52,473 nucleotides of DNA from a virus (taxonomy: Duplodnaviria > Heunggongvirae > Uroviricota > Caudoviricetes), in the IMG/VR virus record IMGVR_UViG_2541047750_000003, positions 1-52,473 of that record; one strand, written 5' to 3'. This document shows, piece by piece, positions 3,978-8,064 of the stretch; the first letter of the stretch is position 1; every line of letters begins with the position of its first letter. The notes under the pieces were generated by a model. That model was not told the origin of the DNA and did no database searches. It was given only the letters and a program-made list of their open reading frames with translations. Both the position numbers and the translations under genes were made by a program.

Positions 3978-3995
3978 TATGTTATTGCCTCCGGT

Positions 3996-5114
3996 TTACA
4001 AAATGGAATATTCAGAGTAATAAACAAAGCGCCCAATTTCCCCATGATCCGGGCTGTAAATAATCACCGCTGCCAGACGCCGCGACCGCCAGCCGCCATT
4101 AGTTGAATATGCGTCTTTGCCAGCTAATGTGCCGTGGTGCTCAACTATTCCAAGTGATGTTTCAACAACTGATTGATGGTGCAGATGTCCAGTGTGAGCG
4201 TAAACAGCCACAGACCTCCCGAAATCCTCCCGCCAGTCAGATACGCAAGCCGACAATAAATTTTCCGGCTTTTTGATAGTGTGCCCGTGGTGGTAAGCAA
4301 GGAATGTTTTGCCGTACTGTGTGTGGTGGACGATAGCAGGGGACACATCAACAGTTACGCGCGGTTCATCTTCGTAAAAAGCCGCCAGCGCCGCACGTAG
4401 CCAAATCATGCCAGACTGATCGTGATTGCCTGATAGTACCTGGATTTCAATATCCTTATGATTTAACAACATCTTTCCTACCGCCCGACGTACCGCTCGG
4501 ATCGCTACATAGACAAGTTTTGCATAGCGTGAATCGCAATCCAGTACGTGATTGCTTGATGGCGTAACTGGCAACAGCCCGTCAGTGTGAAGAACATCCC
4601 CACCGAGAAGCAAAACAGCTTTTTCAGACATCGGCGCAGCGCCCACCGCGTAGTCAAAGAATTCATTCAACACGCGTTCAGCGATCCCAGTGTCGTAGCT
4701 CTCGCCGCATTCAGCTTTATGAGCAAGCGCCCCGATATGCAGATCAAATACCGGATAAAGGGCCAGGCTTTTTTGAAAATCAATTTCAGGCACTGGCACG
4801 GCCTCCGCGCGTGGTATTTCTTCCGTGAATGCGTCGCGGGCAGCTTCCATTAGCCTTTCCATTTCATCACGGTCACGGGCAGTTTTAATCCAGCGCATGA
4901 CCGTATTACCAGCCTTATCGACAAGAACAGATTCACCAGTAACGCCAAAACCAGGCGCGCGACGCGTTGATATTAAACCGCGTTTCGCCAGTTTTGCGCC
5001 TAGCCGCTCGACGTTGCGTTTTGACATGCCATATTTTTCAGCGATCTGCTTGTACGTTAAACCGTTGTTATATTCAGCGATCAATTGCTCATCGCTGATT
5101 TTTCTTTGCGACAT
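3996..5114 (-). CDS. HTH domain fused to calcineurin-like metallophosphoesterase (372 aa)
   Basis: N-terminal HTH (LTYKQIAEKYGMSKRNVERL); ordered phosphoesterase motifs DLHIG, GGDVLH, GNHD, GHLHH; GAGGAA RBS; sits where a helicase loader or O/P-type protein would be. Confidence 0.6.
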   Translation of the reverse strand: MSQRKISDEQLIAEYNNGLTYKQIAEKYGMSKRNVERLGAKLAKRGLISTRRAPGFGVTGESVLVDKAGNTVMRWIKTARDRDEMERLMEAARDAFTEEIPRAEAVPVPEIDFQKSLALYPVFDLHIGALAHKAECGESYDTGIAERVLNEFFDYAVGAAPMSEKAVLLLGGDVLHTDGLLPVTPSSNHVLDCDSRYAKLVYVAIRAVRRAVGKMLLNHKDIEIQVLSGNHDQSGMIWLRAALAAFYEDEPRVTVDVSPAIVHHTQYGKTFLAYHHGHTIKKPENLLSACVSDWREDFGRSVAVYAHTGHLHHQSVVETSLGIVEHHGTLAGKDAYSTNGGWRSRRLAAVIIYSPDHGEIGRFVYYSEYSIL

Positions 5115-5147: not shown

Positions 5148-6071
5148 TTATTGACAGCAAACAATCTCTTTATATGTTTCTTCTACCATGTCGAATACTT
5201 CCGGCCTGTAATAAAAAAATTCAGTGCTACCATCAAACTTAACAGGGAAGTTTATTTTATAGTCACTGAAAGCATCGTGCATTTTGCTTTCTATTTCCTG
5301 CATAATCTCAGTAGGCCCATTCCATGTTTTAACTACCTGTAAATCAGTCAGCCTTACACCTGCCTTACGAGCACTTTTAAATACTCTGTTCCTCCTTTCG
5401 TTCTCTTTTACGCTTACACCAATTTTCATTTGTGTAGGCACTTCAAGATCATCAACCATGATGTAAAGTTTTCCGTTGTAGTGTGATAAAAACCCGTATT
5501 TAGCGCATTTCGGGCAACCGCGCCCGCTCTTAATGTCTCTAGGTTTAGCCGACCACTCATGATCACAAACCTTGCAGCGGCATAATACTTTTGTACTGTT
5601 ATTAACTATTTCAACCAGCACTTCAATATCAGGATTAACCTTAGCAATAGCCGATATTTGTTCTTCATGCGATATTTTTTTGCCTTGCGCTCGTTTTAGC
5701 ACCGCACATTTCTGGCAACCGCTCCCGATCTTAAGGCTTTTAGGTGTAGAATACCACTCATGATCACAAACCTTGCAGCGGCATAATACTTTTATTTTGT
5801 CGCCGGTAATTTCCCCAAGCACTTCAATATCAGGATTAACCTTAGCAATAGCCGATATTTGTTCTTCATGCGATAACTTCATATTCCCAGCGCATTTCTG
5901 GCAACCACGTCCATATTTAATATTGCTAGGTGTAGCCGACCATTCATGGTTACAAACTTTGCAGCGACATAATACTTTTGTACTGTTATTAACAATTTCC
6001 CCTAACACTTCAACATCAGGATTAACTTTCGCGATAGCTGCAACTTGTTCTTCATGTGTTAACTTGCGCAT
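5148..6071 (-). CDS. protein with three tandem zinc-ribbon-like repeats and a C-terminal T5orf172/GIY-YIG-like domain (307 aa)
   Basis: Three ~65-aa repeats each with CRCKVC...GCQKCA (C-x-C-x2-C ... C-x2-C); C-terminal KLYIMVDD...KIG...EFFYY segment resembles T5orf172; AAGGAG RBS. Confidence 0.55.
   Translation of the reverse strand: MRKLTHEEQVAAIAKVNPDVEVLGEIVNNSTKVLCRCKVCNHEWSATPSNIKYGRGCQKCAGNMKLSHEEQISAIAKVNPDIEVLGEITGDKIKVLCRCKVCDHEWYSTPKSLKIGSGCQKCAVLKRAQGKKISHEEQISAIAKVNPDIEVLVEIVNNSTKVLCRCKVCDHEWSAKPRDIKSGRGCPKCAKYGFLSHYNGKLYIMVDDLEVPTQMKIGVSVKENERRNRVFKSARKAGVRLTDLQVVKTWNGPTEIMQEIESKMHDAFSDYKINFPVKFDGSTEFFYYRPEVFDMVEETYKEIVCCQ
5480..6070. repeat. three ~195-bp tandem direct repeats inside the CDS
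   Basis: Long near-identical blocks, e.g. cacttcaatatcaggattaaccttagcaatagccgatatttgttcttcatgcgata at ~5619 and ~5820, with a diverged third copy ~5940-6060. Confidence 0.7.
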
Positions 6072-6210
6072 CGCTCCAACTCCTTAAGAACATCATGCGC
6101 GCTACAACGCAAAAACCCACCGCGACACCCGTTTGCACAGGTTGCAGTGTCTTATTGCGTCAGAGACGCCATCAGGTGGCTAATTTTCGATTTACAGAAT
6201 GGTAGGTAGG

Positions 6211-6312
6211 TTATGGATTGATTAGCAGGTACAGACCGCCGAACAAGGCGACGTTAACAGCGATTGCCGCAGCGATGGCAAAAGCCAGGGCGAAAACGTG
6301 TTTACCGTCCAT
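6211..6312 (-). CDS. small hydrophobic protein (33 aa)
   Basis: MDGKHVFALAFAIAAAIAVNVALFGGLYLLINP with GAGAGG RBS, in the otherwise ORF-free 375-nt gap. Confidence 0.25.
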   Translation of the reverse strand: MDGKHVFALAFAIAAAIAVNVALFGGLYLLINP

Positions 6313-6445: not shown

Positions 6446-7498
6446 TCAAAGAACGCCAGCGCGCGTATCACGTAGCGTTTTTGGTTTAAGCAGGAAATCA
6501 AGTGTCGCGGTGAAGCCATCGCCGAAGTAAAAATCTGAAGCCGTGTTTTTGAACGTTTCGAAGTAGGCGACAAAGCCGTTAATGCTTTTGTCTTTCAGGT
6601 AGTCAGTGAACGCATAGATCTTGCGTTCAAGATCCCGATCCAGTTCGGCAGGTGGTAACAGGCCGTCAAACGTGCTGTTAAATGCTTCCACCACGTCGGC
6701 AGCGTTTACAGTGGCTGACAGTTTGCGCCATTGTTCAGCATCAGTCAGATACCCATCAAATTTAGTTACCCGGCAAATGTTGATAGGCTTAGGTACTCCA
6801 CCACGGCTACGCCATTGGGTTAAAGCCCACTCAATTACTAACGTGATCTCATTCTCCGTATACGCTTTACGTGTTTTTGTTTCTGTCAGTAGTTCTACGA
6901 ATGGCTTAGCATCACGACATTTGCATCCTGCCTTGTCGTTGTAGAAGGCAAGGCAACGCAATGCCGCTTCGTTTACGCCATCCTGATTGACCATTTTTTG
7001 TTCATTTTCGACAATACACGAAGTGTATATATCTTTTTCTCTTTCTTTTTCTACTTCTAATTCTAATTCATGACCCTTTCCTGACCCGGTCATGACCCTA
7101 TCATGACCTTTTTGTGTTGGATTGATTAACTTTTCTAATTTTAATTGCTCCTTCGCTGTGTTTATGGCGGCCCTGTAAGCGCTTTTAGAAGTCATTGATT
7201 GGTCCAGCCTTTTCAATAACTTTAAACAAGTTATGTGGCCTTGAGAACATTCAAACAAACCAATTTCGATGAAGTATTTCATCATTTCTTCTATACGTTT
7301 TTCAGTAGATCCGACGTTTCGAGCAATGATTCTCGCGTCATGTCGTAGGTCAAAAGTCAGATTGTGCTGATCTACGTCATAAGTTATTAGTTCGAGGCAA
7401 TACCAATAAAGCCCGTACCCTTCCAGGCCATAATCTAACAAAACGTTTTGAAGTTTTTCATCGCGGTTCGCATCGCTGTCATGCTTAAACCACTTCAT
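6446..7498 (-). CDS. replication initiator / replisome-organizer-like protein (350 aa)
   Basis: N-terminus MKWFKHDSDANRDEKL and C-terminal FYFGDGF...LLKPKTL region resemble conserved phage replication-protein termini as recalled; GGAGGG RBS; first large gene of the replication operon. Confidence 0.5.
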   Translation of the reverse strand: MKWFKHDSDANRDEKLQNVLLDYGLEGYGLYWYCLELITYDVDQHNLTFDLRHDARIIARNVGSTEKRIEEMMKYFIEIGLFECSQGHITCLKLLKRLDQSMTSKSAYRAAINTAKEQLKLEKLINPTQKGHDRVMTGSGKGHELELEVEKEREKDIYTSCIVENEQKMVNQDGVNEAALRCLAFYNDKAGCKCRDAKPFVELLTETKTRKAYTENEITLVIEWALTQWRSRGGVPKPINICRVTKFDGYLTDAEQWRKLSATVNAADVVEAFNSTFDGLLPPAELDRDLERKIYAFTDYLKDKSINGFVAYFETFKNTASDFYFGDGFTATLDFLLKPKTLRDTRAGVL

Positions 7499-7501
7499 AG
7501 A

Positions 7502-7759
7502 TCATCCCTCCGGCAACATCACTACATAGACATCACTGAATGCATCAAGACGACAAACAAATCCTTTATCCATTAACGCGGCGAAGGCATCATGTACCGT
7601 ATGAACAGGAAGTTCACACATTGCGGCTACTTCTTTGCGTGATGCATCATGTACCCGTCCTTTGTTATCTGCCTTTTCAGCCAGAGCCATTAAGACAAGT
7701 TTTTGAATCGGGCTATTAAGTTTTACGTTCCATGCTTTACTAATCATGTTTATACTCAT
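7502..7759 (-). CDS. Cro-position HTH DNA-binding protein (85 aa)
   Basis: Start refined to the ATG after the AGGAG RBS (track ORF 7502..7837); divergent from cI; KLVLMALAEKADNKG...HDASRKEVAAMCELPVHTV looks like a winged HTH. Confidence 0.5.
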   Translation of the reverse strand: MSINMISKAWNVKLNSPIQKLVLMALAEKADNKGRVHDASRKEVAAMCELPVHTVHDAFAALMDKGFVCRLDAFSDVYVVMLPEG

Positions 7760-8064
7760 CGCATTTTCTCCTATGGTTAGAGTGAACGCGCGGGCGGGCA
7801 TCCCATTAGCATTAGATAGCAGTGACTGACCGCTCAACAGATCCCGCCGTTGCGTGATATTTGTTTTTCGCTTCGCAGCGACACCGGATTTTTAAAGAGC
7901 ATAAGGTAAGTGCCTTTTTGTGCCTTCCGTTATCTTTTTCCTTGCGTCTTTGCAAGTATGGCCTTACCTTGTCTGCAAGTTTACAAAATGGAATTTTAAA
8001 ATCAAGGCTTAAAATACACGTTTTGTGACTTGCATCAAACTTTTTGAGGTTATAGGGTAGCGAC
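7760..8064. promoter_or_regulatory. divergent immunity control region between cI and the minus-strand early operon
   Basis: 305-nt gap between divergent genes; contains TTTACAAAATGGA (7980-7992) and inverted AAGGTAAG/CTTACCTT arms; promoters and operators not resolved. Confidence 0.45.

Follow-up and report, generated by a model that had tools for sequence, protein, structure and literature searches.

Phage genes that join an N-terminal array of zinc fingers to a C-terminal T5orf172 nuclease domain have been described as putative homing endonuclease genes. In the survey by Barth, Dunham and Seed (2023), 87% of the T5orf172 putative homing endonucleases carry zinc fingers of the CapR, DUF723 or DUF4379 type, often repeated and in a "beads on a string" arrangement; the genes cluster beside essential genes, and both in-frame deletion by inter-repeat recombination and domain swapping are documented in them (PMC10448857). 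CapR itself is a zinc-finger DNA-binding protein that needs its four cysteines for binding and is related to the N-terminal domains of T5orf172 proteins of phage ICP1 (Netter et al. 2021, PMC8096241), while Odn, another T5orf172 protein, has been shown to cut DNA in vitro, an activity abolished by the exchange E180A in the equivalent of the catalytic glutamate of I-TevI (Barth et al. 2021, PMC8263062). In a 2025 paper, EDxHD/Vsr nucleases were described that carry three to five CapR-like units, and these units were likened to NUMODs (PMC12350094). Here we analysed a gene at positions 5148 to 6071, on the minus strand, of the IMG/VR record IMGVR_UViG_2541047750_000003 (the window, 52,473 nucleotides [nt] in full), which is a temperate coliphage of the mEp021 (mEpimmI) group. 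From the open reading frame (ORF) list and the sequence, the gene encodes a 307-amino-acid (aa) protein in which a GIY-YIG/T5orf172-like nuclease domain comes after three zinc-finger units. It matches the described class in every testable feature, and we consider it probable that it is a free-standing T5orf172-type homing endonuclease gene.

The gene occupies a cassette with exact boundaries that is present in some relatives and absent from others. The homology in blastn to phages MagusPhagus and mEp010 stops at position 5152 and resumes at 6098, and the 945 bp between (5153 to 6097, delimited by blastn and alignments) carry the gene and its ribosome-binding site in place of about 10 nt of a conserved intergenic spacer, the empty-site sequence in the two phages being around ...GTTTACAGAATGTATATTTATTTTCCGTAAAACGCGCTACAACGC.... 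This cassette is the sole indel across about 5.8 kb that are elsewhere about 92% identical to MagusPhagus. When the window was compared with seven sequenced relatives, the slot was empty in MagusPhagus and mEp010, held a 178-aa allele with one zinc-finger unit in mEp013 and a 495-aa allele with six units in mEp021, and was filled by a Bro-N/KilAC protein in mEp515 and mEp554 and by a Rha/KilAC protein plus a Bro-N protein in mEp044. The alternative occupants are located at L002:3168-3911, L005:2647-3390 and L007:2649-4003 and in the Escherichia coli hits H64-H71. The mEp013 and mEp021 alleles (mEp013_12, labelled "hypothetical protein," and mEp021_12, labelled "putative zinc-ribbon domain-containing protein") share the slot, cassette boundaries and domain types of the window gene and are thus orthologous insertions; the mEpimmI phage genome paper discusses neither them nor the window gene. 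Of 5,426 complete E. coli genomes, 33 contain the region, with a zinc-ribbon gene in the slot in 12 and KilAC, Rha or BRO genes in 8. The spacer that separates the initiator gene from the exonuclease gene is thus a hot spot for mobile genes in mEp021/mEpimmI coliphages. Elsewhere, Bro-N is one of the DNA-binding families found together with T5orf172 domains, and in ICP1 the variable genes beside odn include bro_N- and rha-like ones (PMC8096241, PMC8263062).

The original prediction, made from the sequence of the window, had described a zinc-ribbon repeat protein with a T5orf172-like C terminus between the replication initiator and a helicase-proximal gene, and this description and its domain assignment were correct overall. 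The Lin1244_N/O-like replication initiator (6446 to 7498) lies on one side, and a PHROG 704 "DNA repair exonuclease" (a metallophosphoesterase with an N-terminal helix-turn-helix, 3996 to 5114), followed by DnaB, on the other, all co-oriented with the gene. The same prediction had called the position unusual; it is instead typical. The ORF starts with ATG, 8 nt from a ribosome-binding site AAGGAG read from the sequence at 6080 to 6085 (minus strand) within the cassette. No dedicated promoter was found 5' of the gene on the minus strand, and a hairpin pairing the start codon in the minimum-free-energy fold was no better than in shuffled sequence (z -1.34).

The identity of both parts of the protein rests on several kinds of matches. 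Pfam placed DUF4379 ("probable treble-clef zinc finger," 76.2 bits against a cutoff of 24.5) and the CapR homology domain (55.5 bits against 24.2) on three stretches each. Together with the unit coordinates and the invariant cysteines, these define the minus-strand units R1 (aa 3-60, 5892 to 6065), R2 (aa 65-122, 5706 to 5879) and R3 (aa 132-189, 5505 to 5678); R1 consists of a helix and then a CxxC...CxxC treble-clef ribbon. In an alignment of 39 three-unit homologs that was built independently of the cysteine motif, all twelve zinc-ligand cysteines (C37, C40, C57, C60, C99, C102, C119, C122, C166, C169, C186 and C189) were invariant in 39/39. The C-terminal domain, of GIY-YIG fold and T5orf172/MUG113-like (aa ~197-300, 5172 to 5483, minus strand), scored 20.2 bits against MUG113 (cutoff 22.3) and 18.1 bits against T5orf172 (cutoff 20), while T5orf172 was matched in 32 and MUG113 in 28 of the 39 homologs (E<=1e-3). 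At the same threshold, 253 predicted viral structures matched, the named ones being "T5 Orf172," "CapR homology domain," "GIY-YIG nuclease" or "Hef-like homing endonuclease" proteins, and the best structural matches include the structure-specific nuclease Slx1. PHROG 681, "endonuclease," matched over the full length (E 7.7e-57). A family profile run against PDB sequences found only trypanosome mitoribosome-assembly DUF4379 proteins and no GIY-YIG enzyme, NCBIfam gave no meaningful match, and Pfam matched no NUMOD or helix-turn-helix in the protein. The AlphaFold2 model (mean predicted local distance difference test [pLDDT] 86.9, predicted template modelling score [pTM] 0.42) combines high local confidence with a low pTM and with dips in pLDDT at the linkers, which indicates that the units and the nuclease domain are independently folded, as predicted beads on a string. 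The DUF4379-containing solved structures found by PDB profile and fold searches were only the trypanosomatid mitoribosome assembly factors 6yxx_E2 and 6sga_Fd, where the zinc-ribbon unit belongs to RNA-protein assemblies; no DNA-bound DUF4379 structure turned up in these searches.

The core residues of a GIY-YIG nuclease are in place. Y203 (in KLYIM), K216 and G218 (in KIG), R226 and E284 (in TEFF) are invariant in 39/39 aligned homologs, and Y203, R226 and E284 probably correspond to the catalytic residues of I-TevI and Odn, with E284 as the counterpart of Odn E180 and I-TevI E75. The second GIY-YIG motif reads MKIGVS, with the invariant K216 where the canonical tyrosine stands. Lysine in place of this second tyrosine is the usual state of the T5orf172 family. 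K216 and R226 are 10 residues apart, which we take to match the spacing of Tyr17 and Arg27 in I-TevI.

The closest described proteins are ICP1 gp174, gp165, gp121, gp53 and gp130, T5orf172 putative homing endonucleases with CapR-type zinc fingers. With them and the surveyed class the window gene shares one to six N-terminal units of the CapR, DUF4379 or DUF723 type, a C-terminal T5orf172 domain, intragenic DNA repeats, in-frame deletions and an intergenic place next to an essential gene. It differs in that the protein is only about 30% identical to the Vibrio phage proteins (tblastn), in that the host element is a temperate coliphage or prophage and not a lytic vibriophage, and in that its lineage offers an allelic series at a single orthologous site. 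Odn (ICP1 gp88), the only member with a T5orf172 domain for which we found demonstrated glutamate-dependent DNA cleavage, likewise has this domain C-terminally with the conserved arginine and glutamate, but it is targeted by a satellite-derived RepA_N domain and is an anti-satellite weapon and not a homing enzyme. CapR, from the PLE satellites of Vibrio, shares the zinc-finger family of the array (Pfam PF21817 bears its name) but is a single-domain protein without a nuclease that represses the capsid operon of the helper phage. I-TevI and the T4 Seg proteins have the GIY-YIG catalytic fold in common with the window protein, but their nuclease is N-terminal, whereas here the array (aa 1-192) precedes the nuclease; they bind DNA through a zinc finger, a minor-groove helix and a helix-turn-helix, or through NUMODs, instead of a zinc-finger array, and the canonical enzymes have tyrosine in both motifs where the window protein keeps only Y203. 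The same repeated ~60-aa zinc-finger array is found on EDxHD/Vsr nucleases encoded by phage group II introns, where it has been read as a NUMOD-like targeting module (PMC12350094), and on Listeria phage P70 gp102, whose three units are 48% identical to the window array. These nucleases belong to another superfamily, and the IEYDGxxH motif of P70 gp102 and of P0081 is absent from the window protein. The presence of the array on a different nuclease domain marks it as a portable targeting module. When the C-terminal domain alone was used as query in a shared-word search, only 22 close relatives were returned, with no other N-terminal partners.

At the DNA level, a repeat of 173 nt occurs three times in register (5502-5674, 5703-5875 and 5889-6061), with spacings of 201 and 186 bp and with 84% and 82% identity to the reference copy; Tandem Repeats Finder reported a period of 201 and a score of 565. 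Each protein unit carries CRCKVC[N/D]HEW...GC[Q/P]KC. The original prediction had given this motif with GCQKCA in all repeats, which needs the small correction that the third unit reads GCPKCA. It had also pointed to long near-identical stretches and taken them as a sign of recent duplication. Such stretches do exist, but they are uneven, the longest identical runs being 58 nt between R2 and R3, 26 nt between R1 and R3 and only 14 nt between R1 and R2. R2 and R3 are 84% identical in nucleotide sequence with a synonymous divergence (dS) of 0.25, whereas R1 differs from each of them by a dS of about 1.0, so that a recent origin of all three repeats could be rejected. The low dS and the 58-nt run suggest a recent exchange limited to R2 and R3. 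The repeats did not arise in assembly: the 1.6-kb region is found in full, 99.3-99.9% identical and with these three repeats, in three complete E. coli chromosomes, and a protein identical over all 307 aa (P0004) is on record for 176 contigs. The earlier concern about collapse or expansion in assembly can thus be set aside.

The number of units changes fast among relatives, a comparison that the original prediction had proposed. Sequenced relatives have alleles of 0, 1, 3 and 6 units at the same site, and 2 and 4 units occur elsewhere in the same lineage. Apart from one clean 67-aa deletion, the two-unit protein P0031 matches the window protein at 96% identity; the deletion leaves R2 with its N-terminal half only, fused to the C-terminal half of R3, as would be expected if unequal recombination had occurred in the KVLCRCKVCDHEW-coding stretch that both repeats share. 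P0001 carries a different array, of four units, on a nuclease domain that differs by one residue. By motif count, the top 120 homologs have 2 to 6 units each, although repeat counts of this family (zinc-finger-array T5orf172 genes) from short-read assemblies are to be treated with care. One candidate for a zero-repeat allele, the 103-aa "T5orf172-only" protein P0129 (L010:129-440, Logan contig SRR4241795_73), was rejected because this short-read contig ends within the zinc-finger array and its gene call begins at the internal methionine of KLYIMVDD. P0130-P0133 (103-105 aa) look alike and are probably contig-end artefacts of the same kind.

Some alleles have decayed: P0040 is truncated, P0135 has a deletion of the KLYIM motif and a frameshift, and P0137 is frameshifted by +1 within a T7 run. 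This homopolymer (5213-5219, A7 on the plus strand and T7 in the coding strand) lies in the region coding for the nuclease domain. In P0135 and P0137, the latter found on 8 contigs, the +1 frameshift at the T7 run turns the last ~20 aa into LLQAGSIRHGRR..., which is either real decay or a homopolymer sequencing error.

The variation between units is confined to certain positions. Across 374 unique units the near-fixed scaffold includes I11, N15, I24, K30, V31, W42, P46, K50 and G54 (the four cysteines were required by the motif search for this set, and their conservation rests on the 39-homolog alignment). The variable positions 25-29, 39, 43-45, 47-48, 51 and 53 sit in the basic zinc-ribbon half of the unit (net charge +5 to +7) and not in the acidic helical half (net -3). 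This is the pattern that a modular DNA-reading scaffold would show, and we infer such a role for the units. The nuclease-proximal unit is no more conserved between alleles than the other units, so that conservation does not reveal a positional orthology of units.

The nuclease domain, in comparison, is well preserved. It is 76-77% identical to the mEp013 and mEp021 alleles, with a ratio of nonsynonymous to synonymous divergence (dN/dS) of 0.06-0.09, which indicates strong purifying selection. Its dS of 1.7-2.2 is three to four times higher than that of the adjacent exonuclease and DnaB genes (0.4-0.7), so the history of the gene is decoupled from that of its flanks, as would be expected if the element spreads from genome to genome while keeping its site. 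Related genes are found in other surroundings: a 330-aa homolog lies directly 3' of nrdD in the Vequintavirus WalterGehring, where nrdD itself contains an intron with another endonuclease gene; a 66%-identical homolog neighbours an integrase fragment in another prophage, near eutH; and a 71%-identical homolog is in the same slot of other mEp021-like prophages.

From the above we infer that the window protein probably binds and cleaves DNA at or near the empty site and promotes homing of its own gene. The protein would be made during early transcription of the replication operon, and the basic zinc-ribbon halves would bind a specific DNA sequence, with the hypervariable positions setting the specificity, so that the C-terminal domain could cut nearby by means of R226, E284 and a divalent metal. 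Where a related phage or prophage without the gene shares the cell, the cut would fall in or near the empty spacer, and recombinational repair from the gene-carrying genome would copy the cassette and adjacent markers into the empty one. Unequal recombination between the repeats would add, remove and reshuffle units and alter target recognition, and once no empty targets are left, the alleles would be expected to decay.

Several points weigh against a homing endonuclease. A main caveat is that alleles of one and six units occur at the identical insertion site, which is hard to square with array length defining the target. Another is that the slot also carries the non-nuclease cargo Bro-N, Rha and KilAC, and its polymorphism could partly reflect a general recombination hot spot instead of endonuclease-driven insertion. 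The window protein's own Pfam scores for T5orf172 and MUG113 fall below the curated cutoffs, the canonical tyrosine of the second motif is replaced by lysine, the equivalence of the catalytic residues rests on motif order and spacing and not on a residue-level structural superposition, and a dS near 2 on 118 codons is close to saturation and imprecise. The CapR-array T5orf172 proteins described so far are putative homing endonucleases, and bioinformatics alone cannot show active homing, as Barth et al. pointed out (PMC10448857).

The gene might instead have been domesticated as a weapon, with a nuclease that, like Odn, cuts a competitor (a related phage in co-infection, a resident prophage or a phage satellite) at a site recognised by the array, which would then change in step with its target in the enemy. 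Odn is a T5orf172 nuclease that was re-targeted by a swap of its DNA-binding domain (PMC8263062), comparable coliphage cases have been proposed (PMC10448857), and the purifying selection on the nuclease domain, the fast reshuffling of the array against a near-constant nuclease domain seen in P0001 and the location in the replication module would all suit this role. However, the array is of the generic CapR/DUF4379 type of hundreds of putative homing endonucleases and copies no replication initiator or other identifiable enemy protein, PADLOC gave no significant defence-system match (only PDC-S57, E 0.011, 13.4 bits), and the exact-boundary presence and absence together with the decayed alleles fit a selfish life cycle. 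Marker exclusion of relatives with an empty site would moreover be the same biochemical act as homing, and we see domestication as possible but unlikely.

It is improbable that the protein is a nuclease-dead regulator in the manner of CapR, in which the zinc fingers would bind a promoter or origin, the C-terminal domain would serve only as a scaffold and the transcription or replication of the phage or a rival would be modulated. In favour of this reading, CapR, which is related to the array domains, represses transcription (PMC8096241), a conserved U-run hairpin directly precedes the gene and replication genes follow it, and lysine replaces the second motif tyrosine. CapR has lost the nuclease domain, though, whereas that of the window protein is intact, with invariant tyrosine, arginine and glutamate and a dN/dS of 0.06-0.09, lysine at the second motif is usual in the T5orf172 family, and the gene is dispensable, given that MagusPhagus and mEp010 are viable isolates without it. 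An accessory role in replication or recombination, for example as an origin-nicking or fork-processing nuclease, would agree with the gene's co-oriented place between the initiator gene and those for the exonuclease and DnaB, and with the structural match to Slx1, and we regard it as very improbable.

The surroundings of the slot hold other features of their own. A terminator-like hairpin on the minus strand (6111-6149; CACUGC...GCGGUG enclosing an inner stem, and then UUUUU) stops 13 nt short of the cassette edge on its upstream side, and the cargo of the slot is always placed just past it. Its outer stem is invariant, and the inner stem shows one compensatory change of a CG to an AU pair in 2/8 phages, which is weak evidence for the structure. 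Between the initiator gene and the slot, a 33-aa hydrophobic ORF (MDGKHVFALAFAIAAAIAVNVALFGGLYLLINP; 6211-6312, minus strand) is kept in 8/8 of the mEp021-group phages compared and has been annotated as a gene in related prophages; it may give the replication operon a small membrane peptide. About 1.1 kb away (3978-3995), between DnaB and the exonuclease gene, there is a second polymorphic slot for nuclease genes, where mEp021, mEp515 and mEp010 have an HNH or "homing endonuclease" gene of ~500-590 bp and the two window genes are 18 nt apart. Finally, there is a mosaic boundary inside the initiator gene: the N-terminal two-thirds and a small upstream gene (~6967-7765) match MagusPhagus and mEp515 and have no blastn match to mEp013, mEp021, mEp010, mEp554 or mEp044, while the C-terminal part (6446-6967) is common to all.

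A more far-reaching idea, which we consider speculative and rather unlikely, is that the ~60-aa CapR/DUF4379 units form a decodable modular code for DNA recognition. Each unit may read a short block of base pairs through its dozen hypervariable positions on an invariant zinc scaffold, and the allelic series of 0, 1, 2, 3, 4 and 6 units at this one site, with reshuffled arrays on a near-constant nuclease domain, may record the rewriting of targets by gain, loss and exchange of units. If such a code exists, made-to-order arrays could provide nucleases with compact targeting modules, like zinc-finger and TALE arrays.

In conclusion, the window gene is an element of an already described type that is ordinary for phages, with a number of repeats that varies markedly between relatives. 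Our analysis provides a corrected annotation for a gene labelled "hypothetical protein" or "zinc-ribbon domain-containing protein" in the public records of mEp021/mEpimmI coliphages, which are reported to be common in the human gut. These phages can be propagated on E. coli K-12, and the relatives isolated with an empty site or with alleles of one, three and six units make them a tractable system, in which the allelic series is well suited to testing homing and how the length and the variable positions of the array set the specificity for the target.
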